A stretch of 64,000 nucleotides of DNA from Thermoanaerobaculia bacterium (GTDB lineage Bacteria > Acidobacteriota > Thermoanaerobaculia > Multivoradales > Multivoraceae), in assembly GCA_963666565.1 (NCBI GenBank), contig OY762911.1, positions 32,001 through 96,000 of the forward strand. The letters run 5' to 3'. Positions 3,950 through 17,962 of this stretch are shown in pieces. The stretch's first letter is position 1; each line of letters opens with the position of its first letter. Position numbers and translations under genes: made by a program. A model generated the notes under the pieces. That model was not told where the DNA came from and ran no database searches. It was given only the letters and a program-made list of their open reading frames with translations.

Positions 3950-5806
3950 ATGAAGCGTAGCGCAGAGTCCGCCGCCGTTCTGCTCGCCGCCTTCGCCCTC
4001 GGCTGCACAGCCGGCAGCGACGCTCCGGCGCCCGGCGAAGGCGCGCAGCCCCCCAACATCGTCCTCGTCGTGACCGACGACCAGGGCTACGGCGACTTCG
4101 GCTTCGCCGGCAACCCGGTCCTCCAGACGCCGCACCTCGACGCCCTGGCCGCCCAGAGCGCCACCGTCGAGCGCTTCTACGTGAGCCCGGTCTGCACTCC
4201 GACCCGCGCCTCTCTCATGACGGGCCGCTACAACTACCGCACCCGCGCCATCGACACCTACATCGGCCGCGCGATGATGGAGCCCGAGGAGGTGACGATC
4301 GCAGAGTTGCTGCGGGACGCCGGCTACGCCACCGGCATCTTCGGCAAGTGGCACCTGGGCGACAACTACCCGCTGCGCGCCATGGACCAGGGCTTCGAGG
4401 AAAGCCTGGTTCACCGGGGCGGCGGGATCGGCCAGCCCTCCGACCCGCCCGGCGGCGAGGGCAAGTACACGGACGCGGTGCTCTTCAGGAACGGAAAGCG
4501 GGTGGAGACGACCGGCTACTGCACGGACGTCTACTTCGACGCCGCGTTCGACTTCATGGAACAGGCGGCCAGCGAGGGGCGGCCGTTCTTCGCCTACGTC
4601 CCGACGAACGCGCCCCACGGTCCGTTCCACGACGTGCCGGAAGAGCTGCTGAAGCGCTATCGGCAAGCGGACCTGCGCGCGGCGCTCCCGGATCCCGGCC
4701 AGGCCAGCGAGCAGGCGCTCGACCGGCTGGCCCGCAGCTACGCGATGATCGGCAACATCGACGACAACGTCGGACGGCTGACCGCAAGGCTCGAGGAGCT
4801 GGGTCTCGCGGACAACACGCTCGTCGTCTTCCTGGTCGACAACGGACCGGACCGCGACCGCTACAACGCGGGGCTCCGCGGCCGCAAGGGAACCGTGTTC
4901 GAGGGCGGCGTCCGGTCGCCCCTGCTGGCGCGCTGGCCGGGGCGGCTGCCGGCGGACGCGCCGCCCGTCGACCGGATCGCGGCCCACATCGACATCGCGC
5001 CGACCCTGCTCGACGCCGCCGGCGTCGAACCGCCCGCCGGGTTGCATCTGGACGGCCGCAGCCTGCTCGGCCTGCTCTCCGGCGAGGACGACGCCGCGGA
5101 CTGGCCGGACCGGGCCATCTACCTGCAGTTCCACCGCGGCAACGAACCGATCCCGCTCCACTCCTTCGCCGCCGTCGGCCAGCGCTACAAGCTGGTCCAC
5201 CCGTCCCCGCGCGGCGAGGGGGACTGGAACGGCGAACTGGCCCTCGAGCTCTACGACCTCGAGACCGACCCGGGCGAGAGCCGCAACCTGATCGCCGGCA
5301 CCCGCGTGGCGCATTCCGCCGGGACCGCGACCGCCGCCGCGAGCCCGCCGGCGGACTCGCCGGACGAGATGTCCGAGGTCGCGGCCGGGATGCGGAACGC
5401 CTACCTGGCGTGGTTCGAGGACGTGAGCTCCACCCGGCCGGACAACTACGCGCCGCCACGGATCGTCGTCGGCACGGACCGCGAACCGGTCACCGTACTC
5501 ACCCGCCAGGACTGGCGGCGGATCACCGACGACCAGGGCTGGCGGCCGACCTCGCGCGGCCGTTGGCTGCTGAGAGCCCTGGACGACGCGACGTTCGACA
5601 TCGAGGTGCGGCTCGTCGCCGGCTCCAGCGGTCCGGTCCTCCTGGAAGTCGACGATCGGAAACTCAGCCAGGACCTGAACCCGGATCGGCAGACCGCGAC
5701 GTTTGAAGAGGTCCCGGTCCCCGCTGGCGACTTCGGGCTCAGCGCCGCGGCCGGCGAAGGCGAGGAACAGCGAGGAGCGCATCAGGTAGTGCTGCGGCAG
5801 CGCTAG
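3950..5806 (+). CDS. Arylsulfatase (Cys-type, probable lipoprotein)
   Basis: PNIVLVVTDDQG, CTPTRASLMTGR, GKWHLG; lipobox-like ALGC. Confidence 0.93.
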   Translation: MKRSAESAAVLLAAFALGCTAGSDAPAPGEGAQPPNIVLVVTDDQGYGDFGFAGNPVLQTPHLDALAAQSATVERFYVSPVCTPTRASLMTGRYNYRTRAIDTYIGRAMMEPEEVTIAELLRDAGYATGIFGKWHLGDNYPLRAMDQGFEESLVHRGGGIGQPSDPPGGEGKYTDAVLFRNGKRVETTGYCTDVYFDAAFDFMEQAASEGRPFFAYVPTNAPHGPFHDVPEELLKRYRQADLRAALPDPGQASEQALDRLARSYAMIGNIDDNVGRLTARLEELGLADNTLVVFLVDNGPDRDRYNAGLRGRKGTVFEGGVRSPLLARWPGRLPADAPPVDRIAAHIDIAPTLLDAAGVEPPAGLHLDGRSLLGLLSGEDDAADWPDRAIYLQFHRGNEPIPLHSFAAVGQRYKLVHPSPRGEGDWNGELALELYDLETDPGESRNLIAGTRVAHSAGTATAAASPPADSPDEMSEVAAGMRNAYLAWFEDVSSTRPDNYAPPRIVVGTDREPVTVLTRQDWRRITDDQGWRPTSRGRWLLRALDDATFDIEVRLVAGSSGPVLLEVDDRKLSQDLNPDRQTATFEEVPVPAGDFGLSAAAGEGEEQRGAHQVVLRQR

Positions 5807-5839
5807 CGCCAGCCGCGGCTCTGCTAACCTCCGCGGCCA

Positions 5840-6217
5840 ATGCTGCGCCGGACCGGTTCGCCACTCGCCATCGTCAACGCTCTCGCGCTGACGCTCGCCA
5901 CCCTGCTCGCTGGAGCCTGGGACTCGAGCGGCCACGGCCACGGCCTGGCCGCGGCGAACGCCGCCTACTGCGCGGTAGATCACGAGGCCGAGGCCAGCGG
6001 CGCCGCCAGCCGGGCCGCGGTCAGTCAGGCCGCGGCGACGCACGATCATTCCTGCGTCGCCTGCAATCTGGGACGTTCCAAGATCGTCGAGGAGCGCAAG
6101 ACCTCGATCGCCGGACTCCTGGACCTCCCCTCGGCCGCGACGGGCTCGGAGGACGGGGGCTGCCCCACCAGCGGCGAGCGCTGGCGGCACACCGCTCGCG
6201 GGCCGCCCCTGGGCTGA
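5840..6217 (+). CDS. DUF2946/CruR-like leader protein, copy 1
   Basis: Hydrophobic N-terminus, HGH, HDHSCVAC, C-terminal ARGPPLG; directly upstream of a TonB receptor; paralog at 12132. Confidence 0.8.
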   Translation: MLRRTGSPLAIVNALALTLATLLAGAWDSSGHGHGLAAANAAYCAVDHEAEASGAASRAAVSQAAATHDHSCVACNLGRSKIVEERKTSIAGLLDLPSAATGSEDGGCPTSGERWRHTARGPPLG

Positions 6218-6449
6218 GTCGATCCGACTCCGCCCGCGCTGCACAGCGCGACGCGTCGGAGTCGTGAAAAGAAAGGTGAGCGCCCCTCGTCGGGGTGACC
6301 GCGACGACCCGTAGCGGTCAGCTCAAGCTGACGCATCCCGGTCGTCCAACGGCGCCGCCGGCGATTCGGTGCGATCCCACCGCCGCGGAATCCGCGGCCT
6401 GCGCTACGGCACTCTTCGACTCGGACTGAACGACCCAGGAACCACAACC
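6214..6449 (+). promoter_or_regulatory. Structured intergenic leader RNA, copy 1
   Basis: Hairpins 6225-6264 and 6317-6332; 6214-6222 is complementary to 6416-6424; same elements in copy 2. Confidence 0.55.
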
Positions 6450-9044
6450 ATGATCGCCAACCGCACAAAGGCCTCGAACTCCTATCCGCGGCGCCGGCAC
6501 CACCGGCGCCAGGCGGCGACGGGCGCCGTTCTCTGCGCCCTCGCCCTTCTTCTCATTCCAGCGACGGCCGGCGCCCAGGAAACCGGCTCCGTCGCCGGGT
6601 CCGTCGAAACGCACGGCGAGAGAATCGTGCTCGCCGTGGCGCGCATCCCCGCGCTCGGCATCAGCGCCGCGGTGTCCACGGACGGCACGTTCCGCTTCGA
6701 CGAAGTGCCGGCCGGCACGTATCTCGTCGTCGTCGACATTCCCGCCTTCGGCACGGCCAGCGAGACGGTCACCGTGGCGGGCGGCGACGAGGTGGATCTC
6801 CAGCTCGAAATGCGTCACGGAACGCACTTCGACGAGGTCGTGGTCACCGCGACCGGCGACCTGCGCCGCGCCTCCGAACTGGCGAATCCCGTCTCCGTGC
6901 TGTCCGGCACGGACCTCCAGTTGCGCCTCGGCGCCACGCTGGGCGAAACGCTGGAGAACGAACCCGGCGTGTACTCGACGGCGTTCACCCCCGGCGCCGG
7001 CCGGCCGATCATCCGCGGCCTGACGGGCGCACGTGTGCGCGTCATGGAAGGCGGACTCGACACCGGCGACGCCTCCACCGTCAGTGCGGACCACGCGGTG
7101 ACCTTCGAACCGGCGCACGCCGAGCAGATCGAGGTTCTGCGCGGCCCCGCCACGCTCCGCTTCGGGTCGGAGGCCATCGGCGGCGCCGTCAACATCGTCG
7201 ACGGCCGGATTCCGACCGAGAAGCCCGTCAGCGCGCTGAAGGGCACGATCGACCTTCGCGGCGGCACCAACGCCGACGAGCGGATGGGCGCCATCCATCT
7301 CGACGGCGGCGGCGGCGAATGGGCTTGGCACCTGGGCGCCGTCAGCCGGGAGACCGATCCGTACGAGATCCCCGGCTACGCCCGCGTCGAGGAGGAGCAC
7401 GACGATCACGACGAGGACCATGACGAAGACCACGACGAGGATCACGACGAGGACGAGGATCACGACGAGGACGAGGACCACGACGACGAGGACCATGACG
7501 AAGATCACGACGAGGATGACCACGACGAACACGAAGAAGAGAACACCTTCGGGATGGTCCCGAACACGGATCTGAAGACGGAGAGCGGCCGGTTCGGCTT
7601 CACCCGCTTCTTCGGCGATCGCGGCTCGATCGGCGTTTCGGTCAGCGGCTTCGACACGAACTACGGGATCCCGCCTGGCGGGCACGCTCATCACGAGCAC
7701 GACGATCACGACGACGAGGACCACGACGAGGACCACGACGACGAGGACCACGACGACGAAGATCACGACGACGAAGACCACGACGACGAAGACCACGACG
7801 ACGAAGACCACGACGACGAAGACCACGACGACGAAGACCACGACGACGAAGATCACGACGACCACGAGGAAGAGGAAGTCCCGATCCGCATCGACATGCA
7901 GCAGCGCCGCGTCGACCTGCGCGCCGAGGCCCTGCCGGCGTCCGGCGCCTTTCAGAAGATCGAGGTCCGGATGGCGGGAACCGACTACGAGCACGTCGAG
8001 CTCGAAGGTCCCAACGTCGGCACGACCTTCTTCAACGAGTACTTCGAGACCCGGCTCGAGATGTTCCAGCGCGAGCGCGGCCGCAGTCGCGGCTCCGTCG
8101 GTCTCCAGTACTCGGACCGCAACCTGGAGGCCTTCGGCGAGGAGGCCTTCGTTCCTCCGACGCAGTCCGAGGGATTGGCGGTCTTCACCTCCCAGGAAGT
8201 CGAGGCCGGCGCCGTTCGCTGGCAGTTCGGGGCCCGCTTCGAGCAACTCGATCAGAACCCGGCGACTACCAGGGATACCTCGCACGACGGGGTCTCCGCC
8301 TCCGCCGGCCTCGTCTGGGACGCGGCCGACGACTGGGTGCTCGGCGTGTCGCTGGCTCGTTCGGTCCGCCTTCCGTCAGCGGAAGAGCTCTTCTCGGACG
8401 GCGTGCATGTCGCCACGCAGAGCTACGAGGTCGGCGACCCGAACCTCGACAACGAGGTCGGCACCGGCATCGACGTGTCGCTGCGCAAGACGGAGGGACC
8501 GCTGACCGGCGAACTGACGATCTTCCGCCAGAGCTTCAGCGACTTCATCTACCAGGCCTTCACCGGCGAAGAGGAGGACGGTTTCTCGGTGCTCCAGCAC
8601 AGCCAGGCCGACGCCACCACCGAAGGCGCCGAACTCCGGCTCCGGCTCGAGCTGCTCGACCGCAACGACCATCACCTGCACCTCCAGGCGATCGCCGACA
8701 CCGTCGACGCCGAGCTGGACGCGGGTGGCAACCTGCCGCGGATTCCGCCAATGAGCTTCGGCGCCGGCCTCCACTACCACGGCCACCATTGGCGCGCCGC
8801 GGTGGAGGGTCGCTGGTTCGACGACCAGAACGACGTCGCGGAACTGGAGACCCCGACCGAGGGCTACACTCTGGTGAACGCCCACGTCGGGCGGCGCTTC
8901 ATCGTCGGCAACCAGATCCTCGACGTGCTCCTGCGGGGCCGCAACCTGACGGACGAGGAGGCGCGCGTGCATACCTCGTTCCTGAAGAACTTCGCGGCCC
9001 TGCCCGGCAGGGACATCACCCTGTCGGCCCGGTTCTGGTTCTGA
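6450..9044 (+). CDS. TonB-dependent receptor, ZnuD-like, with His/Asp-rich loops
   Basis: Signal peptide, carboxypeptidase-regulatory-like N-domain, EVVVTAT, TLGETL...PG, RPIIRG, IEVLRGPATLRFG, LPRIPP, C-terminal ARFWF. Confidence 0.93.
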   Translation: MIANRTKASNSYPRRRHHRRQAATGAVLCALALLLIPATAGAQETGSVAGSVETHGERIVLAVARIPALGISAAVSTDGTFRFDEVPAGTYLVVVDIPAFGTASETVTVAGGDEVDLQLEMRHGTHFDEVVVTATGDLRRASELANPVSVLSGTDLQLRLGATLGETLENEPGVYSTAFTPGAGRPIIRGLTGARVRVMEGGLDTGDASTVSADHAVTFEPAHAEQIEVLRGPATLRFGSEAIGGAVNIVDGRIPTEKPVSALKGTIDLRGGTNADERMGAIHLDGGGGEWAWHLGAVSRETDPYEIPGYARVEEEHDDHDEDHDEDHDEDHDEDEDHDEDEDHDDEDHDEDHDEDDHDEHEEENTFGMVPNTDLKTESGRFGFTRFFGDRGSIGVSVSGFDTNYGIPPGGHAHHEHDDHDDEDHDEDHDDEDHDDEDHDDEDHDDEDHDDEDHDDEDHDDEDHDDEDHDDHEEEEVPIRIDMQQRRVDLRAEALPASGAFQKIEVRMAGTDYEHVELEGPNVGTTFFNEYFETRLEMFQRERGRSRGSVGLQYSDRNLEAFGEEAFVPPTQSEGLAVFTSQEVEAGAVRWQFGARFEQLDQNPATTRDTSHDGVSASAGLVWDAADDWVLGVSLARSVRLPSAEELFSDGVHVATQSYEVGDPNLDNEVGTGIDVSLRKTEGPLTGELTIFRQSFSDFIYQAFTGEEEDGFSVLQHSQADATTEGAELRLRLELLDRNDHHLHLQAIADTVDAELDAGGNLPRIPPMSFGAGLHYHGHHWRAAVEGRWFDDQNDVAELETPTEGYTLVNAHVGRRFIVGNQILDVLLRGRNLTDEEARVHTSFLKNFAALPGRDITLSARFWF
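7398..7535 (+). repeat. In-frame His/Asp/Glu tandem repeat, loop 1
   Basis: Degenerate CACGACGAGGAC-type units encoding HDED. Confidence 0.85.
7698..7868 (+). repeat. In-frame 15-bp tandem repeat encoding (HDDED)n, loop 2
   Basis: GACCACGACGACGAA/G repeated about 10 times. Confidence 0.9.
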
Positions 9045-9066
9045 GTCGGGCAAGGAACTCAACGCC

Positions 9067-10323
9067 TTGCTCCCCTGCCGGGAAAAGACCACGCAGCGCT
9101 CCCTGACGTCCCGTTTCCGCGAGGCGTCTCTTCCCGCGGCGCTCTTCCTGTCTGTCTGCCTGATTGCCTGCGGGTCCGGCGTGCCCGTCGATCCGGGATC
9201 CGTCGAAGGCGCGACGCCCGCGGCGTCCTACGCGGAGACCTTCAGCGTCGTCGAACGGGACGGCTACCGCGTTGTCGACATCGAAGCGTCCGTCGTCGCC
9301 TGGGGCGGATCGGCGGGCGGACCGCCGCAACGCGTCCGCCTGGTGCTGGTCCCAAAGGGCGGAACGCCGCCAGCGCTGACGGGAGAACTGGCAGGCGCCT
9401 CGTTGATCCGAACGCCCGTCGAGCGGATCGCCGTCAACGATCAACCGCATGAGGCCATGCTGCGCGCACTCGGAGTGGAGAGCCGGATCGTCGCGGTCGG
9501 CGGGCGCGACAGCTACGACGACGGCCTGCGCCGCAAGGCCCGGTCACGTGAGATCCAGCAGATCGGCTACGCGTGGCACATGCCGCCTACGCTCGATGCG
9601 CTGGTGGCGTCGCGGCCCGAAGTGCTGATCGCGCGCATGGCCGACCTCACGCACACGCAGCACATGGAGCGCGTCGAGTCGCTCGGCATCGCGGTCGTGC
9701 CGACCTTCATCGATGCGGAGCCGCACTACATGGGGCGTGTCGAGTGGATCCGTCTGATGGGTCTGCTGACCGGTACGGAGGCGGAAGCCGATGAGTTCGT
9801 CCAGATGGTCGCGCAAGAGGTCGACCGCCTGAAGGCCATTGCGAACGGGCATCCCCGACGATCGGTTCTCTGGGCCTGGTACCGGAGCGCGGGCAATCGC
9901 TGGGCCGTCACGCAGCGCAACGCCGATGCGGCCCTCATTCGCGACGCCAACGCGGAGCTTGTCATGGGCGCCGAGGACGATCCGGAGCTCGACGCGTTCT
10001 CCGATCTCTCCACGGAACGGCTGCTGCGGGACGGTACGGATGCCGACTGCTGGATGATCCGCGACCCGCTCTCCGGAGTGTTCGACGATCAGGCCGTGCT
10101 TTCTCGCTTCAAGGCCTATCGGGACGATTGCGTGTTCTGGGAGTCCGGCAAGCGCCATCCCACCGCCGATTCGTGGGAGCTGTGGGAGATGGGCACCATC
10201 CGGCCGGACTGGCAACTGGCCGACATCATGAAGATGATGCATCCGGCACTGCGTGACGGCGAGTGGCGTTACCTCGCGCCGGAGACGTGGGAAGCGGACC
10301 ATGCCCTCGCGGGTCGGCACTAG
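9067..10323 (+). CDS. ABC transporter substrate-binding lipoprotein (Fe-siderophore/cobalamin class)
   Basis: LIAC lipobox, IRTPVERIAV, EPHYMGRVEWI, RPDWQLADI; start uncertain. Confidence 0.85.
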   Translation: MLPCREKTTQRSLTSRFREASLPAALFLSVCLIACGSGVPVDPGSVEGATPAASYAETFSVVERDGYRVVDIEASVVAWGGSAGGPPQRVRLVLVPKGGTPPALTGELAGASLIRTPVERIAVNDQPHEAMLRALGVESRIVAVGGRDSYDDGLRRKARSREIQQIGYAWHMPPTLDALVASRPEVLIARMADLTHTQHMERVESLGIAVVPTFIDAEPHYMGRVEWIRLMGLLTGTEAEADEFVQMVAQEVDRLKAIANGHPRRSVLWAWYRSAGNRWAVTQRNADAALIRDANAELVMGAEDDPELDAFSDLSTERLLRDGTDADCWMIRDPLSGVFDDQAVLSRFKAYRDDCVFWESGKRHPTADSWELWEMGTIRPDWQLADIMKMMHPALRDGEWRYLAPETWEADHALAGRH

Positions 10324-11332
10324 CGTCGTCGTTCTGGTCGGCGCGCTCGCCGCGCTCTCGCTGCTCACCCTCACCTATGGGCAGATCGCGCTGCCACTGG
10401 CCGACACGGTCGGCGCGCTCACCGGAACGCTGTCGACCGACCTTGCGCGCCAGATCGTCCTCGACATTCGCCTTCCGCGAGTCGCCGCCGCGATCATCGC
10501 CGGCGCCGCGCTCGGCATGGCGGGAGTGCTGATGCAGGCCCTCTTCCGGAACCCGGTGGCCGACGGCTGGTCTCTCGGCCTGCTCGCGGGCGGCCAGCTC
10601 GGGGTCGCACTCACGGTGACCGCGGCGGCTTTTGCGGGTCCCGCGGCCGTGTCCTTCCTGACCTTCTTCGAGGGCCCCAGCATCACGCTGGCGGCCGCCG
10701 CCGGCGTAGCGGTTGCGGCATTCGCCATGCTCGCGCTCGGCCGCCGCGTCGGCGCCATCACGCTGCTCGTCATCGGCCTGATGCTCGGCTTCACCTCCCA
10801 GGGCCTCACCAGCGTTCTTCTTCACTTCGCCGCCCGCGCCGGCGGCCGGATCTATGGCGGATGGCAGGATGCGAGCTTCGCCGGCGTCGCCCCTTCGGCG
10901 CTGGCGTGGCTCTCGCTGCCGATCCTCGTCGGCGCCTGCGTCGCCGTCGCGACGGCCAAGCCGCTCAGTTCGCTGCTTCTCGGCGAGGCCTACGCGCGCA
11001 GCCTCGGGGTCAAGGTGACGTCGCTCCGACATGCCGTCCTCGCGGCTACCGTACTCCTGGTGGCGCCGGTCGTGGCCTTCTGCGGTCCGGTCAGCTTCGT
11101 CGGCCTCATCGCACCGCACTTCGCGCGCGCACTGGCCGGGACGGCGCGAATCCTCCCGCTCCTGCCGCTTGCCGCGCTTGGCGGTGCGCTGCTTGCCCTT
11201 GCCGGCGACGCCATCGTTCATGCGCCGTGGGAACAGCACTTCCTGCACCTGAACGCGATCCTCGCCATCGTCGGCGCCCCGGTCGTGATTCTCATCCTGA
11301 TCCTCTCACCGGCCGTGAGACAGTGGCGCTGA
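10301..11332 (+). CDS. FecCD/BtuC-family ABC permease
   Basis: IRLPR, MQALFRNPVAD, LLLGEAYARSLGV, GPVSFVGLIAPH. Confidence 0.92.
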   Translation: MPSRVGTSVVVLVGALAALSLLTLTYGQIALPLADTVGALTGTLSTDLARQIVLDIRLPRVAAAIIAGAALGMAGVLMQALFRNPVADGWSLGLLAGGQLGVALTVTAAAFAGPAAVSFLTFFEGPSITLAAAAGVAVAAFAMLALGRRVGAITLLVIGLMLGFTSQGLTSVLLHFAARAGGRIYGGWQDASFAGVAPSALAWLSLPILVGACVAVATAKPLSSLLLGEAYARSLGVKVTSLRHAVLAATVLLVAPVVAFCGPVSFVGLIAPHFARALAGTARILPLLPLAALGGALLALAGDAIVHAPWEQHFLHLNAILAIVGAPVVILILILSPAVRQWR

Positions 11333-12117
11333 TGCTGGATCTGCGATCCCTCGCCGTGGGCTACCGCAACACACGGAACATCGTTCTTTCCGGCATCGAC
11401 CTGGCGGCCGCGCCTGGCGACTTCATCTGCATCCTCGGCCGCAACGGGTCCGGGAAGTCGACGCTCATGCGCACGATCGCGGCGCTGCAAACCTCGCTCG
11501 ACGGCGCCGTGCTGCTCGACGGCGAGGACGTCGCCTCCATGCGTCCGGCGACCCGCGCGCGCCGGATCGCGGTCGTGCTGACGGAGCGGCAGTTCAATCC
11601 GGGCCTGCGCGTCGAGGACGTCGTCGCACTCGCCCGGCAGCCCTTCACGGGTTGGCAGGGTGGACTGGCGGACGACGACCGGGCGGCGGTCGCCGACGCC
11701 GTCGCGACAGCCGGCGTCGGGCCGTTCCTGCGCCGTTTCTTCAGCGATCTCAGCGACGGCGAGCGACAGCGCGTGATGATCGCGCGGGCGCTCGCACAAA
11801 CCCCGCGCCTCATGGTCCTCGACGAGATCACGGCCTTCCTCGACCTTCCAAGCCGGGTCGAGATCACGGCCCTCCTGCGCTCCCAGGCGAAGCAGAAAGG
11901 GCAGGTCATCCTGCTCTCAAGCCACGACCTCGACCTTTCGCTTCAGCTCGCCGACAGCGTCTGGCTGCTCGACGGCACCGGCGGCTTTTCGGTCGGCACG
12001 CCGGCGGCCCTGAGCGAGAGTGGCGGGCTCGGCCGTGCCTTCGACACGGAGGCGATCCGGTTCTCGCCCTCCCACGGGCGGTTCGAGATCCGGATGTCCC
12101 CATCCGCGAATCCATGA
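11332..12117 (+). CDS. ABC transporter ATP-binding protein (FepC/BtuD-like)
   Basis: GRNGSGKST, LSDGERQRVMIARALAQ, LDE, SHD; TGATG coupling to the permease. Confidence 0.93.
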   Translation: MLDLRSLAVGYRNTRNIVLSGIDLAAAPGDFICILGRNGSGKSTLMRTIAALQTSLDGAVLLDGEDVASMRPATRARRIAVVLTERQFNPGLRVEDVVALARQPFTGWQGGLADDDRAAVADAVATAGVGPFLRRFFSDLSDGERQRVMIARALAQTPRLMVLDEITAFLDLPSRVEITALLRSQAKQKGQVILLSSHDLDLSLQLADSVWLLDGTGGFSVGTPAALSESGGLGRAFDTEAIRFSPSHGRFEIRMSPSANP

Positions 12118-12131
12118 TAAAAGGCCCCTCC

Positions 12132-12506
12132 GTGCCGCACCGATCCCACTCGCCGCTCGTCATCGTCAACGCACTCGCGCTGACGGTCGCGACGCTCGTC
12201 GCCGCCTGGGACGCGGGCTGCCACGACCATGACGAGCCGGCGGCAAGGGACGCCCGGTACGCGATCAACCAGGAAGCCGCGGCCTCCGGGGCCGCGAACC
12301 CCGCCAGCCTCGCCAGCGCCGAGGCGCCGCACGAACACTCCTGCGTCGCGTGCAGGATCGGATGCTCGAAGTCGGCCGAGATCGCCAGGAACTCCGCTTC
12401 CAGGCCGCTCGACCTCGCTTCGGCCGCGGCAAGGCCCGAGAACGACGGCAGCGCCCGACGCGGCGCGCCCAGGCTGCAGGCTGCTCGCGGTCCGCCGCTG
12501 GGCTGA
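12132..12506 (+). CDS. DUF2946/CruR-like leader protein, copy 2
   Basis: SPLVIVNALALT, HDH, HEHSCVAC, ARGPPLG-stop; GTG start chosen by alignment to copy 1 (ATG 12114 is an alternative). Confidence 0.8.
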   Translation: MPHRSHSPLVIVNALALTVATLVAAWDAGCHDHDEPAARDARYAINQEAAASGAANPASLASAEAPHEHSCVACRIGCSKSAEIARNSASRPLDLASAAARPENDGSARRGAPRLQAARGPPLG

Positions 12507-12801
12507 GTCGAACAGCGGCGCCGACCCGCGCGGCAACGCGCGGCGTCGGAGCCTCCAGAAAGCAAACCAGGCGTCGCCCGCCCCACTTCGGGGCGATGGC
12601 GACGACGCCATCGCGGTCAGCCGTTGCTGACCCGAACGGAGTCGCAGCATCGCGCGACCGACGAGTTCGGCACGCCGCAAGCGCTGCGAATCCTCAGCCA
12701 GCGCCACACAAGCTCCCTTGACCCGGAGGGCCTTCGATCCGAAGGGCCTTCGACTCGGAGGGACCCTCGACTCGGACCGAACCATGCAGGAACTCAAGAC
12801 A
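12503..12801 (+). promoter_or_regulatory. Structured intergenic leader RNA, copy 2
   Basis: Hairpins 12521-12549 (GCAA loop) and 12615-12632; 12503-12512 is complementary to 12749-12758 and 12767-12775. Confidence 0.55.
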
Positions 12802-15348
12802 ATGCTCGCTACCTTCACCAAGCTCTCGAACTCCAATCCACGGCGCCGGCCCCGCTGGCGCCAAGCAGCGACGGGCGCCGCTCTCTGCGCCCTTGCCCTC
12901 ATCCTCCCCCCGCCGCCGGCCAACGGTCAGGCGACGGGATCCGTCGCCGGAACGGTCACGAGCCCCGGCGAAGCCGGCATCTCGCTCGCCGTCGCCCGTC
13001 TCTCCGAGTTGTCCCTCAGCGCCCCGGTGGCCGCGGACGGGACGTTTCGGTTCGACGCCGTGCCTCCCGGCACGTATCTCCTGGTCGTCGACATTCCGTC
13101 GGTCGGCCTGACCAGCCAGCCGGTCACCGTCTCGGCCGGCCAGCAGACGACCCTCGAACTGGAACACGATCACTTCACCCACTTCGACGAGATCGTCGTC
13201 ACCGGCTCCGGCGATCTCCGGAACGAGTCCGAGCTGCCGAACGCGATCTCCGTGCTGGGCGGCGCCGACCTGCAACTGCGCCTGGGGGCGACGCTGGGCG
13301 AGACCCTGGCGGGGGAACCGGGCCTGTCCTCCACCGCGTTCGTTCCGGGAGCGGCGCGGCCGGTCATCCGCGGCCTTTCGAGCGCGCGCGTTCGTGTGCT
13401 CAACGGCGGCATGGGAACCGGCGACGTTTCCGTGGAGAGCGCCGACCACGCCGTGACGACCGACCCGATCCTGGCGGAGCAGGTCGAAGTGCTGAGAGGT
13501 CCGGCCACGCTCCGCTACGGCTCGGGCGCCATCGGCGGCGCCGTGAACGTCGTCGACGGTCGCATTCCAGCGAACCGGGCGGCAAGGACCGTTGGCGGCA
13601 GGATCGACCTGGTCGGCGGTTCGGTGGCCGACGAGGAGACGGGCGCGGTCCAACTCAACGGAGGCGGCGGCGAATGGGCCTGGCACATCGGGGCCGTCAG
13701 CCGGAAGACCGATCCGTACGAGATCCCCGGCTACGCCCGCCTCGAGGAGGAGCACGACGACCACGACGACCACGGCCACGAGGACGAGGACCACGAAAAC
13801 GACGACCACGACGACCACGAAGAGGAGAACAGCTTCGGCATCGTCCCGAACACGGACCTGAGGACCGAAAGCGGCCGGGTCGGCGTCACGCGCTTCTTCG
13901 GCAACCGCGGTTTCCTGGGCGTCTCGTTCAGCGGTTTCAGCACCGACTACGGCATTCCGCCAGGCGCACACAGCCACGCAGGGCACGATCACGGCGGAGA
14001 CGGCCACGACGAGGACGGGGATCACCACGACGAGGACGGGGATCACCACGACGAGGACGAGGACCATCACGACGAGGATGACGACCACCACGGCGACGAC
14101 GAGGACCACCACGACGAGGATGACGACCACCACGACGAGGATGACGACCACCACGACGAAGAGGAAGAGCACCATGACGACGGCGACATTCGCCTCGACA
14201 TGAAGCAGCAGCGCTTCGACCTCAGAGCCAGCGTCAACCTGCTCGCACCCGCCTTCGAGAGGCTCGAACTGCAAACGTCCGGAACGGACTACGAGCACGT
14301 CGAGTTCGAAAGCGGCCACACCGGCGTCCTCTACACGAACGACCTCTTCGAGACCCGGGTCGAGATGTTCCAACGCGAGCGGGGCGCCAGCCGGGGCAGC
14401 GTCGGCTTGCAGTACGTGGACCGCGATCTCGCCGCGGTCGGCGCCGAGGCCTTCATCCCCCCGACCCGCTCGAACACCTGGGCGGCTTTCACCTCCCAGG
14501 AGATTCAGAGGGGATCGGTTCGCTGGCAGTTCGGCGCCCGCTTCGAACAGGCCGAGCACGACCCGGCAAACGGACCGGCCTGGTCCGGCGACGGCGTTTC
14601 CGCCTCGACCGGCATCGTCTGGACGGCCGGAGACGCGTGGAACCTCGGCGTGTCGGCCTCGCGCTCAGTTCGCCTTCCCAGTCCGGGCGAGCTGTTCTCC
14701 CACGGTGCTCACATACCCACCCGGACCTTCGACATCGGCGATCCCGACCTGGACGCGGAAGTCGGCGCCGGCCTGGACATCACGCTTCGCAGGGAGGAGG
14801 GCGCCGTCCAGGGCAAGTTGACCCTGTTCCGGCAGGACTTCCAGGACTTCATCTACCACGCGTTCACCGGCACGGAGCTCTCTGGCTTCCCGGTCACCGT
14901 CTACAGTCAGGCCGACGCGACGATGACCGGCGCGGAGCTCCACGCGCGGATAGAGCTCGCGGAGTGGAACGGGCACGACCTGCACATGGAGATCGTGGGC
15001 GACACGGTCGACGCGGAACTGGACGAAGGCGGCAATCTGCCGAGAATTCCGCCGCTGAGCCTGGGCGCCGGCGTCCACTACCACGGCCACGACTGGCGGG
15101 CAGCGGTCGAGTGGCGGTGGGTCGACGACCAGAACGATGTCGCCGAGCAGGAGACGCCGACCGACGGCTACGCCATGCTGAACGCGCACATCGGCCGGCG
15201 CTTTACGGCGAACGACCAGATCTTCGACCTGCTCCTGCGGGGGCGGAACCTGACCGACGAGGAAGCCCGGGTGCACACGTCCCTGCTCAAGACGTTCGCG
15301 CCCCTGCCCGGGAGGGACATCACGCTGTCGGCGCGGTTCTGGTTCTGA
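12802..15348 (+). CDS. TonB-dependent receptor, ZnuD-like, paralog 2
   Basis: Colinear with 6450-9044; VEVLRGPATLRYG, His/Asp loops, ARFWF end; start chosen by alignment. Confidence 0.93.
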   Translation: MLATFTKLSNSNPRRRPRWRQAATGAALCALALILPPPPANGQATGSVAGTVTSPGEAGISLAVARLSELSLSAPVAADGTFRFDAVPPGTYLLVVDIPSVGLTSQPVTVSAGQQTTLELEHDHFTHFDEIVVTGSGDLRNESELPNAISVLGGADLQLRLGATLGETLAGEPGLSSTAFVPGAARPVIRGLSSARVRVLNGGMGTGDVSVESADHAVTTDPILAEQVEVLRGPATLRYGSGAIGGAVNVVDGRIPANRAARTVGGRIDLVGGSVADEETGAVQLNGGGGEWAWHIGAVSRKTDPYEIPGYARLEEEHDDHDDHGHEDEDHENDDHDDHEEENSFGIVPNTDLRTESGRVGVTRFFGNRGFLGVSFSGFSTDYGIPPGAHSHAGHDHGGDGHDEDGDHHDEDGDHHDEDEDHHDEDDDHHGDDEDHHDEDDDHHDEDDDHHDEEEEHHDDGDIRLDMKQQRFDLRASVNLLAPAFERLELQTSGTDYEHVEFESGHTGVLYTNDLFETRVEMFQRERGASRGSVGLQYVDRDLAAVGAEAFIPPTRSNTWAAFTSQEIQRGSVRWQFGARFEQAEHDPANGPAWSGDGVSASTGIVWTAGDAWNLGVSASRSVRLPSPGELFSHGAHIPTRTFDIGDPDLDAEVGAGLDITLRREEGAVQGKLTLFRQDFQDFIYHAFTGTELSGFPVTVYSQADATMTGAELHARIELAEWNGHDLHMEIVGDTVDAELDEGGNLPRIPPLSLGAGVHYHGHDWRAAVEWRWVDDQNDVAEQETPTDGYAMLNAHIGRRFTANDQIFDLLLRGRNLTDEEARVHTSLLKTFAPLPGRDITLSARFWF
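13984..14180 (+). repeat. In-frame His/Asp repeat (HHDEDDD-type, about 21-bp units)
   Basis: CACCACGACGAGGATGACGAC-like units. Confidence 0.85.
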
Positions 15349-15404: not shown

Positions 15405-15481
15405 GTCCCCATCGTCTAGCCAGGTCAGGACTCCAGCCTTTCAAGCTGGCAACACGGGTTCGAATCCCGTTGGGGACGCCA
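15405..15481 (+). tRNA. tRNA-Glu (anticodon TTC)
   Basis: Acceptor GTCCCCA/TGGGGAC, anticodon arm CCAGC-CTTTCAA-GCTGG, T arm ACGGG-TTCGAAT-CCCGT, encoded CCA; TATACT at 15353-15358 upstream. Confidence 0.96.
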
Positions 15482-15492
15482 TCGCGCCGGAT

Positions 15493-15961
15493 GGCGCGAT
15501 GGCGGCCACAACGGGTTCGGTCGACGCTGCTCGCCTACGGCTCGCCGCTCTGGAACGTATCCCGTTGGGGACGAAGCCCTGCCGGTCGGCGCGATGGCGG
15601 CCACAACGGGTTCGGTCGACGCTGCTCGCCTACGGCTCGCCGCTCTGGAACGTATCCCGTTGGGGACGAAGCCCTGCCGGTCGGCGCGATGGCGGCCACA
15701 ACGGGTTCGGTCGACGCTGCTCGCCTGCGGCTCGCCGCTCTGGAACGAATCCCGTTCAACGCGAAACGTCAACACGCCGGATCGGCGCGATGGCGGCCAC
15801 AACGGGTTCGGTCGACGCTGCTCGCCTCCGGCTCGCCGCTCTGGAACGAATCCCGAGCGAGACGTCAACCCGCCGACTGGCGCGATGGCGGCCACAACGG
15901 GTTCGGTCGACGCTGCTCGCCTCCGGCTCGCCGCTCTGGAACGTATCCCGTTGGGGACGCC
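15493..15961 (+). repeat. Five tandem tRNA-3'-end-derived repeats (period 95-101 bp)
   Basis: Core GGCGCGATGGCGGCCACAACGGGTTCGGTCGACGCTGCTCGCCTnCGGCTCGCCGCTCTGGAACGwATCCCG starts at 15493, 15588, 15683, 15784 and 15879. Confidence 0.93.
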
Positions 15962-15988
15962 GGGCGGGCGGTTGGTACCCTGAACGGG

Positions 15989-17962
15989 ATGAAGGTGATC
16001 GCGAACTCGGGGGTTCGGCGTCGGGCTGGGCGGCGAGCCCTCGTTGCGTGGGCCGGCGTGCTGGTGCTGGGGTCGACGCTGGCGGCGCAGGAGGGCGAGT
16101 GGCCGTACTTCGGCGGTGACCGCACCTTCAAGCGCTACTCGCCGCTCGACCGGATCGACGCCTCGAACGTCGGCGATCTGCGCATCGTGTGGCGGCGGCC
16201 GGGTCTGGAACCGGAGCTCAGGGAGGAGTTCCCCGAGTTGCGGCCGGGCAACAACCTGCGATCGACGCCGATCATGGTCGAAGGTCGCCTCTTCCTGACC
16301 AACCTCGTCGGCCTGCTGCGCGCCGTCGACCCGGCGAGCGGCGAGACCCTGTGGGCTCAGGCGCCGTTCGAGCCGACGATCGAGGAGGCACGCGGCTTGA
16401 GCCCACGAGGCGTCGACCTCTGGACCGGCGGCGAGCGGCAACGACTGTTCCTCGCACGCGGCAACTACCTGTACTCGGTCGACGCCTCGAGCGGCGAGCT
16501 CGACGGCGACTTCGGCGACCAGGGACGCGTCAGCCTCCGCCTCCCGGGACCGCTTGCCGGCGATTTCACCTGGACCGCCGGGCCGATCGTCGTGGGCGAC
16601 GTCGTCGTGACGGCCGGATACACCGGAGGCGCCGGCGACGGCGGCAGCAAGAGAGAAGCGACGCCGGAGGACGTGCGCGGCTACGACGTCCGCACGGGCC
16701 GCCGGCTGTGGACGTTCCACGTCGTGCCGCGGCCGGGCGAGCCGGGCAACGAGACCTGGGGCGACGGCTCGTGGGAGTACTCGGGCGACCTCGGGTCGTG
16801 GTGCTGCCTGTCGGCCGACGAGGAACTCGGCCACGTCTACGTCCAGCTCTCGGCCCCGACCGCGGCGTACTACGGCGGCCACCGGCCCGGCGACAACCTG
16901 TATTCCAACTCGCTCGTGGCGCTGGACGCCGGGACGGGCGAGCGAGTCTGGCACTTTCAGATGGTGCGCCACGACGTCTGGGAGTGGGACACGGTCGGTC
17001 CGGCGACCCTCGGCGAGATCACGGTCGACGGGAGGCGGATCGACGCCGTCATGCAGCCCTCGAAGACCGGCTTCCTCTACGTCTTCGATCGCCGTACCGG
17101 GGAGCCGGTGTGGCCGATCGAGGAGAGGGCCGTGCCCGGCTCACGGGTCCCCGGGGAGCAACTGTCGCCGACCCAGCCGTTCCCGACGAAGCCGCCGCCC
17201 TTCGACCGGCAGGGATTCGTGGAGGACGACCTGATCGACTTCACGCCGGAGCTCCGGGCACGCGCCCTGGAACTCGTCAAGCCCTTCCGTCTCGGGCCGA
17301 TGTTCACGCCGCCCGGCCTGATGGACGACGAGCAGGGGAAGATCGGCACCCTGACGAACCCGGGATGGTGGGGAACGGGGAACTGGCATACCGGCGCCTT
17401 CGATCCCGAGACCGGCGTGTACTACGCCGTGTCCCACACCTGGCCGAGCGTGTACTCCCTGACACAGCCGGAAGGCAGCGACGCGACACTCGGCTACGTG
17501 GTCGGCTACGACGGTCCCGACGTACCGACCCTCGACGGACTCCCGATCGTGAAGCCACCCTACGGGCGAATCACCGCAATCGACATGCATCGCGGCGAGC
17601 ACGTGTGGATGGCGGCCAACGGCGACGGGCCTCGAGACCATCCCCTGCTCGAAGGCCTCGACGCGCCGCCCCTGGGAGTCGCCGGGCGGCCGGCGCCGCT
17701 GGTGACGAAGACGCTGCTGTTCATCGGTGAAGGCAGCGACGCCATCCCCGGCATCGAGGGGGAAGAAGGCCGCTACTGGGGCAGGAAGTTCCGCGCCTAC
17801 GACAAGGCCACGGGCGAGGTCGTGTGGGAAACGGAGCTGCCGTCCGGCACCACCGGCGCGCCGATTACCTACATGCACGAGGGTCGCCAGTTCATCGTCG
17901 TCGCGATCGGCGGCAACGAGTCCCCGGCGGAATTCGTGGCGTTTGGCCTGCCGCTGGACTGA
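15989..17962 (+). CDS. PQQ-dependent dehydrogenase (glucose/quinate-like beta-propeller), secreted
   Basis: Signal peptide, RYSPLDRID, RGYDVRTG, WHFQMVRHDVWEWD, PTQPFPTKPPPF, KPPYGRITAID. Confidence 0.9.
   Translation: MKVIANSGVRRRAGRRALVAWAGVLVLGSTLAAQEGEWPYFGGDRTFKRYSPLDRIDASNVGDLRIVWRRPGLEPELREEFPELRPGNNLRSTPIMVEGRLFLTNLVGLLRAVDPASGETLWAQAPFEPTIEEARGLSPRGVDLWTGGERQRLFLARGNYLYSVDASSGELDGDFGDQGRVSLRLPGPLAGDFTWTAGPIVVGDVVVTAGYTGGAGDGGSKREATPEDVRGYDVRTGRRLWTFHVVPRPGEPGNETWGDGSWEYSGDLGSWCCLSADEELGHVYVQLSAPTAAYYGGHRPGDNLYSNSLVALDAGTGERVWHFQMVRHDVWEWDTVGPATLGEITVDGRRIDAVMQPSKTGFLYVFDRRTGEPVWPIEERAVPGSRVPGEQLSPTQPFPTKPPPFDRQGFVEDDLIDFTPELRARALELVKPFRLGPMFTPPGLMDDEQGKIGTLTNPGWWGTGNWHTGAFDPETGVYYAVSHTWPSVYSLTQPEGSDATLGYVVGYDGPDVPTLDGLPIVKPPYGRITAIDMHRGEHVWMAANGDGPRDHPLLEGLDAPPLGVAGRPAPLVTKTLLFIGEGSDAIPGIEGEEGRYWGRKFRAYDKATGEVVWETELPSGTTGAPITYMHEGRQFIVVAIGGNESPAEFVAFGLPLD

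Follow-up and report, generated by a model that had tools for sequence, protein, structure and literature searches.

A structured spacer RNA between CruR/CutF-type upstream reading frames and TonB-dependent receptor genes of a Thermoanaerobaculia bacterium, and a long-range helix that may close it

Two cassettes and their spacer RNA

A stretch of 64,000 nucleotides (nt) from a Thermoanaerobaculia bacterium (Acidobacteriota; GenBank assembly GCA_963666565.1, contig OY762911.1, positions 32,001 to 96,000), hereafter the window, was analysed for the RNA spacers that lie between a small upstream open reading frame (uORF) and a TonB-dependent receptor gene. The + strand of the window carries two copies of one cassette of uORF, spacer and receptor, and a whole-genome search found only these two spacer copies in this genome. 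In a preliminary description the uORF stop codon had been proposed to pair with the region ahead of the receptor ribosome-binding site (RBS) in both copies, and a ribosome stalled on the uORF to shift this fold; the spacer could then be the expression platform of a switch and an undescribed cis-regulatory RNA. Positions written -N are distances from the A of the receptor ATG (at 6450 in copy 1). The following features were placed, the long-range helix being called P1:

5840..6217, + strand: uORF copy 1, 125 amino acids (aa), CruR-like (distant DUF2946), with an N-terminal hydrophobic segment and HxHSCVAC (CxxC), ending TARGPPLG-TGA
6197..6208, + strand: R-G-P-P codons, presumed arrest motif, two codons ahead of TGA
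6210..6222, + strand: P1 5' strand of copy 1 (extension 6210-6212, core 6214-6222)
Spacer copy 1: 232 nt between the uORF 1 stop and the receptor 1 ATG
6416..6428, + strand: P1 3' strand of copy 1 (core 6416-6424, extension 6426-6428), a C-rich, G-poor block nearly invariant in the genus
6437-6441, + strand: Shine-Dalgarno (SD) sequence AGGAA
6450-6452, + strand: start codon ATG of receptor 1
6450..9044, + strand: TonB-dependent receptor 1, with CarboxypepD_reg, Plug and barrel domains and His/Asp-rich inserts
12114..12506, + strand: uORF copy 2, 130 aa, ending AARGPPLG-stop (TGA)
12503..12512, + strand: P1 5' strand of copy 2
Spacer copy 2: 295 nt between the uORF 2 stop and the receptor 2 ATG at 12802
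12749..12775, + strand: P1 3' strands of copy 2, in two copies (12749-12758 and 12767-12775)
12802..15348, + strand: TonB-dependent receptor 2

The sequence of copy 1 shows directly that CTGAGTCGA (6214-6222; its TGA stop occupies 6215-6217) has its complement in TCGACUCGG (6416-6424). The 3' core, TCGACTCGG at 6416-6424, forms 9 base pairs (bp) with CTGAGTCGA, including one U-G, 26-34 nt upstream of the ATG at 6450, and beyond a G.A mismatch the core helix gains 3 pairs (6210-6212 with 6426-6428). In copy 2, CTGAGTCGAA (12503-12512) is complementary to both TTCGACTCGG (12749-12758) and TCGACTCGG (12767-12775), ahead of the ATG at 12802; the first of these 3' strands lies inside an insertion of about 50 nt with a hairpin of its own. 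Two competing pairings were also seen in copy 1, where 6225-6232 (CGACTCCG) pairs perfectly with 6257-6264 (CGGAGTCG) and 6216-6221 pairs with 6225-6230. All coordinates and strings of the preliminary description proved correct.

Contiguous helices joining the stop window (-9..+15) to the last 40 nt ahead of the ATG were compared with those in 1000 dinucleotide shuffles of the 3' window, of which 0.3% (copy 1) and 0.7% (copy 2) gave a helix as good. The whole-spacer fold was likewise better than that of shuffled sequences, with z = -3.35 in copy 1 (1/200 as good) and z = -3.90 in copy 2 (0/100), and P1 was present in the minimum free energy (MFE) structure of both.

For comparative analysis, 54 spacers of the genus with a clear start codon were aligned (30 orthologous to copy 1, 24 to copy 2), leaving out loci with Ns, truncation or uncertain starts. 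The spacers are 209-295 nt long and lead to a TonB-dependent receptor in all 54 loci. Consensus folds of group 1, of group 2 and of all 54 keep P1 and four to five hairpins. Two hairpins had been singled out earlier as kept with changed sequence, and both were found as described: CGCGCT-GCAC-AGCGCG (6235-6250) versus CCGCGCG-GCAA-CGCGCGG (12526-12543), and GTCAGC-TCAA-GCTGAC (6317-6332) versus GGTCAGC-CGTT-GCTGACC (12615-12632). The internal hairpins covary, with 22/55 pairs changed on both sides against 14.7 +/- 2.2 in shuffles (0/500 shuffles reached 22), and this covariation bears out a conserved structured spacer RNA. The hairpins in copy 1, with the pairs changed on both sides where counted, are:

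6225..6264, + strand: P2 stem-loop, outer 6225-6232 with 6257-6264 and inner 6235-6240 with 6245-6250; 4/14 pairs changed
6281..6297, + strand: P3, a weak hairpin, CCCC (6283-6286) with GGGG (6292-6295); 0/5 pairs changed
6303..6346, + strand: P4, GACGACC (6303-6309) with GGTCGTC (6340-6346), enclosing GTCAGC (6317-6322) with GCTGAC (6327-6332)
6353..6373, + strand: P5 hairpin, 6353-6361 with 6366-6373; 5/9 pairs changed
6382..6398, + strand: P6 hairpin, GCCGCGG-AAT-CCGCGGC; 2/6 pairs changed

The GGTCAGC hairpin in P4 (4/7 pairs changed on both sides, 96.8% of cells paired) is the best supported together with P5, and P3 appeared in the consensus fold only, being missing from the copy 1 MFE structure. 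In one copy 1 orthologue, L012, a (CTAG)n microsatellite of about 16 extra bases is expanded in the loop of the GATCAGC hairpin, the stem remaining intact. No Rfam match was found in either spacer at E <= 10 (5500-13500 searched); two chance-level matches lie elsewhere.

Three other candidates were tried and rejected. UGA recoding with a hairpin after the stop resembling a selenocysteine insertion sequence was set aside given that 6/81 genus loci use TAA or TAG and that spacer indels are not multiples of three; the same indels speak against a small reading frame or an upstream receptor start within the spacer. A GAGTCG in P4, which could mimic the 5' arm and take the 3' arm under stalling, was seen in the constrained consensus fold; as many loci have GGAATCG at this place, the mimic is not conserved.

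The uORF protein and its family

Judged by its sequence, the uORF is a member, on a distant branch, of the published CruR/CutF (DUF2946) class of arrest peptides. Residues H32, H34, H70, C72, C75 and R120-G-P-P123 were invariant in the 14/14 diverse members aligned, all of which carry the CxxC motif in the context H-x-H-S-C-V-A-C. The gap between CxxC and RGPP is 44 residues in the window protein and 43 in loci L085-L087, and is given as 45 +/- 2 by Roy et al. (PMC9426467; this and the other papers below are cited for the parts of their text that were compared). An N-terminal hydrophobic stretch, LAIVNALALTLATLLAGAW, is visible by eye in the uORF 1 protein and is a candidate signal peptide or anchor.

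In the genus, RGPP (LGPP in one locus) is followed by two residues and the stop in 80/81 loci; the distance from PP to the stop is thus exactly two codons in these loci, though the identities of the two residues vary freely. The stop itself is TGA in 75/81 genus loci and TAA or TAG in the other six, a preference that may be explained by TGA forming part of P1. In a profile search, the uORF was found in 61/300 genomes of the order and 12/401 of the phylum. Of the 28 loci of other genera that were examined, all have RGPP (21) or RAPP (7), placed 1-5 residues ahead of the stop. Within the genus it is present in 38/41 genomes, and among relatives in 49/101, often with 2-5 paralogues, and a receptor followed the uORF in each of the first 30 loci. 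A metagenome scan found no relative, and a search from three distant members returned only two loci, both already in the set.

The Pfam model PF11162 matched the uORF 1 protein (P0001) with 18.3 bits against a gathering cut-off of 23.7, the alignment being full-length (profile positions 3-117), and gave no match with the uORF 2 protein (P0002). At E <= 0.1 it matched 6/14 members and 3/10 further members, every match under the cut-off, and a six-frame search of the genome itself with this model found nothing. Close homologues have no precomputed Pfam domain and are 'hypothetical proteins' of metagenome-assembled genomes named Holophagales or Acidobacteriota. Because the matches are sub-threshold and the close homologues unannotated, we take the proteins to form a divergent, unannotated branch of the family. 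The expectation of an undescribed cis-regulatory RNA was not upheld, as the uORF belongs to the CruR/CutF class and a stem between uORF end and SD is the published CutF mechanism.

A third uORF paralogue group (ARGPP-KG/QG/TG), absent from the window genome, was seen in L036, L043-L050, L052, L055, L056, L058 and L061. It has a different CarboxypepD_reg-type receptor downstream (MH.LRPRNSLLL...) and spacers of 148-254 nt, in which the GAGTCGA...TCGACTC arms are kept. A copy-2-type uORF at G037:C1:155793-156134 has an in-frame TAA and a shortened match, and may be a pseudogene. In L037 the usual spacer and 3' block stand ahead of a protein with a twin-arginine-like signal instead of a receptor, and in L042 and L051 the uORF is followed by an ATP-binding cassette (ABC) transporter ATPase and the 3' arm is gone. 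The module seems to be exchangeable between downstream genes.

P1 as a candidate switch helix

We consider it somewhat probable that the spacer is the expression platform of a CruR/CutF-type switch, in which P1 is the helix kept open by an arrested or terminating ribosome. Each operon would encode a small exported or anchored CxxC protein ending ARGPP-x-x-UGA and then a ZnuD-like TonB-dependent receptor, with the four to five hairpins of the spacer RNA closed by P1. The 5' strand of P1 would consist of the last codon or codons, the UGA and the next 5 nt, with the 3' strand 22-34 nt upstream of the AUG of the receptor. Once arrested on RGPP, as we infer to occur, or when terminating at UGA, a ribosome would sit on the 5' strand and block P1; with the uORF end unoccupied P1 would close, presumably also in vivo. 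A ribosome reaches about +15/16 nt from its P site. If the first Pro codon (6203-6205) is placed in the P site, following the CruR toeprint (PMC12992588), the stalled ribosome would cover most of the P1 5' strand, as had been suggested.

P1 would thus correspond, at long range, to the anti-SD stem of CutF. Where other genera of the order are concerned, the SD itself serves as the 3' strand, and therefore arrest is expected to turn on translation of the receptor. For the genus of the window, P1 probably has a weaker and indirect effect: closed P1 would remove a single-stranded C-rich landing region upstream of the RBS and so affect ribosome loading, and may leave the C-rich receptor leader untranslated and open to Rho.

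In favour of this reading stand the family features of the uORF, P1 in both window MFE structures and in the consensus folds, the shuffle results and the covarying internal hairpins. Across the 54 loci, 89.2% of P1 cells are paired, and one-sided changes that keep pairing were seen (C-G to U-G, U-G to U-A and G-C to G-U). Almost no variation was seen in the 3' block, the SD included, which is conserved better than the adjoining coding sequence. For the ensemble cost of opening the RBS (-16..+6), three states were calculated: the RNA unconstrained (free); the 28 nt at its start (-24..+4 around the stop, within reach of a ribosome arrested on RGPP) kept single-stranded; and a control window kept single-stranded. 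The stalled constraint lowered this cost from 6.68 to 3.88 kcal/mol in copy 1 and from 7.26 to 4.23 kcal/mol in copy 2.

A stop-to-RBS helix is also kept by relatives of other genera, where quite different sequences form it. Many of these outgroup loci have an unrelated or diverged stop-region sequence that is complementary to the SD itself. The contiguous-helix test gave p < 0.05 in 6/26 outgroup loci, where about 1.3/26 are expected by chance (binomial probability of at least six about 0.002, by hand calculation):

L085: 5' strand GCUGAAUCCUU, 3' strand AAGGAUUCAGU at -12..-2, on the SD
L089: 5' strand CGAUCUCCUG, 3' strand CAGGAGAUCG, on the SD
L100: 5' strand GAUCCUUUU, 3' strand AAAAGGAUC, on the SD
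L107: 5' strand GCCUGAGUCCU, 3' strand AGGACUCAGGU, on the SD
L108: 5' strand AGCUGAGUCC, 3' strand GGACUCAGCU, on the SD
L114: 5' strand UCUCUCCU, 3' strand AGGAGAGA, on the SD

A further four loci lay at p 0.054-0.061. The outgroup RBS is costly to open (mean about 10 kcal/mol), and the stalled constraint lowered the cost by more than 1 kcal/mol in 15/25 loci and raised it in one, the control constraint lowering it in 7/25. Between the 3' consensus of the outgroup, AAGGACUCAG, and the arm of the genus, UCGACUCGG, there is a resemblance, GGA having become CGA. From this resemblance we read the genus helix as the ancestral anti-SD stem, with a newer SD lying 9 nt downstream of its end. A CutF-type stem would then have been stretched over a hairpin domain of about 200 nt and displaced from the SD in the window's genus.

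The following results weigh against a switch role of P1. Its covariation was not significant, with 3/12 pairs changed on both sides against 2.1 in shuffles (176/500 reach this number); the three pairs so changed belong to the extension, and none of the nine core pairs showed compensatory change. The covariation check of the 54 genus spacers thus favoured the internal hairpins and failed for the long-range helix. Uncompensated breaks occur, above all U-A to C.A, which leaves one pair unpaired in 13/54 loci; the underlying change from GAGTCGA to GAGCCGA or GAACCGA recurs and is never compensated. P1, counted as at least 6/9 core pairs, was found in the MFE structure of 29/54 loci only; its mean pair probability was at least 0.5 in 27/54 and below 0.1 in 20/54, where it is predicted to be absent. 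The longest contiguous helix between stop and pre-RBS region in 77 genus loci, a count that takes in the third paralogue group with its different receptor, reached 8 bp or more in 41 loci, came to 6-7 bp in another 16 and did not exceed 5 bp in 20. In L051 the 5' arm is kept though the downstream gene and the 3' arm are replaced; with the same replacement in L042, the 5' arm is off by one base (CTGAGTCGG).

The position of P1 and the opening costs point the same way. With the P1 3' strand at -34..-22 and the SD (AGGA) at -13..-10, the helix ends 9 nt upstream of the SD, and the pairing of a uORF 3' end with the SD of the next gene, as in CutF, was not found in the window. Over the 54 loci the mean opening cost is already low: 4.06 kcal/mol for the free RNA, 4.40 with the stalled constraint and 3.92 with the control constraint. 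By more than 1 kcal/mol, the stalled constraint lowered it in 5/54 loci, among them both window copies, raised it in 14/54 and left 35/54 unaffected, and the control constraint lowered it in 4/54 and raised it in 1/54. Because the cost is low and little changed by the stalled constraint, the RBS of the genus is expected to be largely open whatever P1 does. Forcing the stop region open frees the RBS modestly in both window copies, and a fold shift exposing the RBS is not a conserved property of the genus.

Among the outgroup loci, 20/26 were without a significant helix, and 16 showed nothing. The outgroup sequences had been read by eye before the test; for L112 and L113 the start codon was chosen only once the sequence had been inspected, and loci of kin do not count as independent. 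With the first statistic used, RNAduplex energies with loops, only 5/24 loci had p < 0.05; it was replaced by the contiguous-helix statistic because G+C-rich windows give strong chance duplexes.

Alternative explanations, known systems and meaning

The alternative that survives best, although we hold it to be unlikely, is a pure CruR-type Rho attenuator, in which the arrested ribosome only blocks Rho loading, the hairpins are a zone of polymerase pausing and termination, and P1 is not regulatory. In gene order and in having a long spacer the cassettes match cruR-bfrG, whose intergenic region was mapped as the place of Rho-dependent termination (PMC9426467). A rho gene is present in this genome, above the family cut-off, and no intrinsic terminator or sigma-70-like promoter was found in 5600-6600, the promoter scan being limited to the sigma-70 type. 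From about -70 to +50 of the receptor ATG runs a G-poor stretch with more C than G (C 0.37-0.48, G 0.12-0.33), the excess of C holding in 48-54/54 loci in every window. The RBS left unsequestered in the genus and the weakness of P1 in 20/54 loci fit this explanation as well. It leaves unexplained the recurrence, in other genera and with different sequences, of a stop-to-RBS helix that covers the SD, and the place of the P1 arms among the most conserved spacer blocks; moreover, Rho and P1 mechanisms do not exclude each other.

Both could be combined in one specific version of the switch, which seems to us rather unlikely. The ancestral anti-SD helix of the genus would have been uncoupled from the SD and reused, P1 now hiding a C-rich stretch that is either a ribosome standby site or a Rho entry site. 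As a standby site the stretch would serve with the uORF ribosome arrested, P1 open and the receptor translated; as a Rho entry site, with P1 closed and the leader untranslated. If true, one long-range helix would join both DUF2946 mechanisms, the translational control of CutF and the Rho-dependent control of CruR.

We give a small chance to P1 being a vestige, that is, to the ancestral anti-SD stem having lost its job once a new SD arose downstream, with the hairpins serving messenger RNA stability or processing, or nothing. The likeness of the genus arm to the outgroup SD arm, with the working SD 9 nt further on, would be expected of a vestige, as would the uncompensated helix-breaking changes and the predicted absence of the helix in 20/54 loci. 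A vestige accords poorly with the near-invariance of the 3' block through the SD, with the retention of UGA in 75/81 loci and with the compensatory changes that keep the internal hairpins. There is only a very slight chance that the blocks, which are conserved as sequence and not as pairs, are binding sites of a protein or small RNA with incidental complementarity: two GGA motifs, CGGAC and CAGGAA, stand 12 nt apart and might suit GGA-binding proteins, against which stand the shuffle values (p 0.003 and 0.007) and the same architecture with other sequences in relatives.

Regarding transcription, one RNA-library contig matches 5702-6309 and 6409-6900, its own 91 letters replacing the 99 nt between, which is not proof of a single transcript; with 133 differing letters, it is taken to come from a relative. 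Contigs about 90% alike to 5700-6900 were found in one sponge metagenome DNA run, one marine metagenome DNA run and one metatranscriptome library, so relatives of the organism are presumably present in those samples.

Upstream of uORF 1, a sulfatase gene (PF00884) at 3950-5806 on the same strand ends about 34 nt before it. Directly 3' of receptor 1, 9067-12117 encodes a periplasmic binding protein (Peripla_BP_2), a FecCD permease and an ABC ATPase, which with the receptor would make a complete uptake route from outer to inner membrane. Receptor 2 is followed at 15470-17962 by an 830-aa dehydrogenase dependent on pyrroloquinoline quinone (PQQ; PF01011, E = 1.2e-161). As PQQ-dependent dehydrogenases need calcium or lanthanides, receptor 2 may serve the metal supply of this enzyme. 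The best NCBIfam match of both receptors is ZnuD (E = 1.8e-104 and 2.4e-108), both under that model's cut-off, and both receptors (6450-9044 and 12802-15348) have long low-complexity inserts rich in His, Asp and Glu, e.g. HDDHDDHGHEDEDHENDDHDDHEEE, with repeated DHHDEDxDHH units. Since ZnuD is a zinc-piracy receptor and the inserts are of this kind, the metal sensed by the CxxC uORF may be zinc instead of, or besides, copper; ZnuD-like receptors may leave either choice.

Among known systems, CruR of Bordetella pertussis is close in layout: a DUF2946 uORF that carries CxxC, with RAPP at its C-terminus, and that precedes the TonB-dependent transporter BfrG by 162 nt (Roy et al. 2022, PMC9426467). 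It controls BfrG by RAPP-dependent arrest and Rho-dependent termination in the intergenic region, described as 'probably highly structured', and the authors argue that over such distances coupling is excluded and initiation has to be de novo (PMC9426467). The CruR-BfrG(CrtA)-Bp2921 operon shares with the window the DUF2946-type CxxC uORF as first gene, R-x-P-P a few residues before the stop, a CxxC-motif spacing of 45 (44 here) and a long G+C-rich intergenic region before a TonB-dependent transporter. It differs in having RAPP instead of RGPP, a proteobacterial instead of an Acidobacteriota-type host, and a PepSY_TM protein as partner, where the window has a binding protein, FecCD permease and ABC ATPase, or a PQQ dehydrogenase. 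The Pfam match is sub-threshold here, the spacer is 232-295 nt here and 162 nt there, and the main-text parts compared do not describe a long-range helix. A later paper on the BfrG/CrtA transporter family (PMC12914433) adds no spacer structure in its compared parts.

In Rhodobacter capsulatus, CutF stalls and melts a stem-loop in which the 3' end of cutF acts as anti-SD to the SD of cutO (Ozturk et al. 2023; bioRxiv 2025.02.05.636593). Here too a DUF2946 uORF 3' end is predicted to pair with the downstream RBS region, and a stalled ribosome would melt the stem. CutF-CutO has a short local stem-loop over the SD, whereas about 200 nt separate the strands of P1, with four to five hairpins between them, and the genus 3' strand stops 9 nt short of the SD. 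SecM-secA, MifM-yidC2 and VemP-secDF2 resemble the cassettes in a C-terminal arrest motif near the uORF end and a ribosome that unwinds a structure limiting initiation of the next gene, but they monitor protein export and have local structures, whereas the present family is tied to metal uptake. A survey in EMBO J 2025 (PMC12992588) reported, across Gram-negative phyla, small ORFs with RAPP/RGPP that lie upstream of genes for TonB-dependent receptors, with the motif near the C-terminus of small signal-bearing proteins as here, and its CruR toeprint placed the two Pro codons in the P and A sites; in the parts compared it deals with peptides, and not with the RNA between genes. A literature search, outside which supplements and subscription papers lay, found no description of such a spacer structure. 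New in the present loci are the long-range anti-RBS stem enclosing a covarying hairpin domain, the displacement of this stem from the SD in one genus and the extension of the system to an unannotated acidobacterial clade.

DUF2946 arrest peptides such as CruR and CutF are a recently recognised coupling of metal sensing to gene expression, and long spacers follow most cruR genes. For one such spacer a concrete RNA model can now be given, in which several hairpins form a domain and a helix between the uORF stop and the ribosome-binding region of the receptor closes it, with a proposed effect on expression. Because related lineages place the helix on the SD, the results suggest that translational control of the CutF type can span 100-300 nt and that receptor operons of Acidobacteriota use it, and they extend the family to a clade that Pfam does not annotate.

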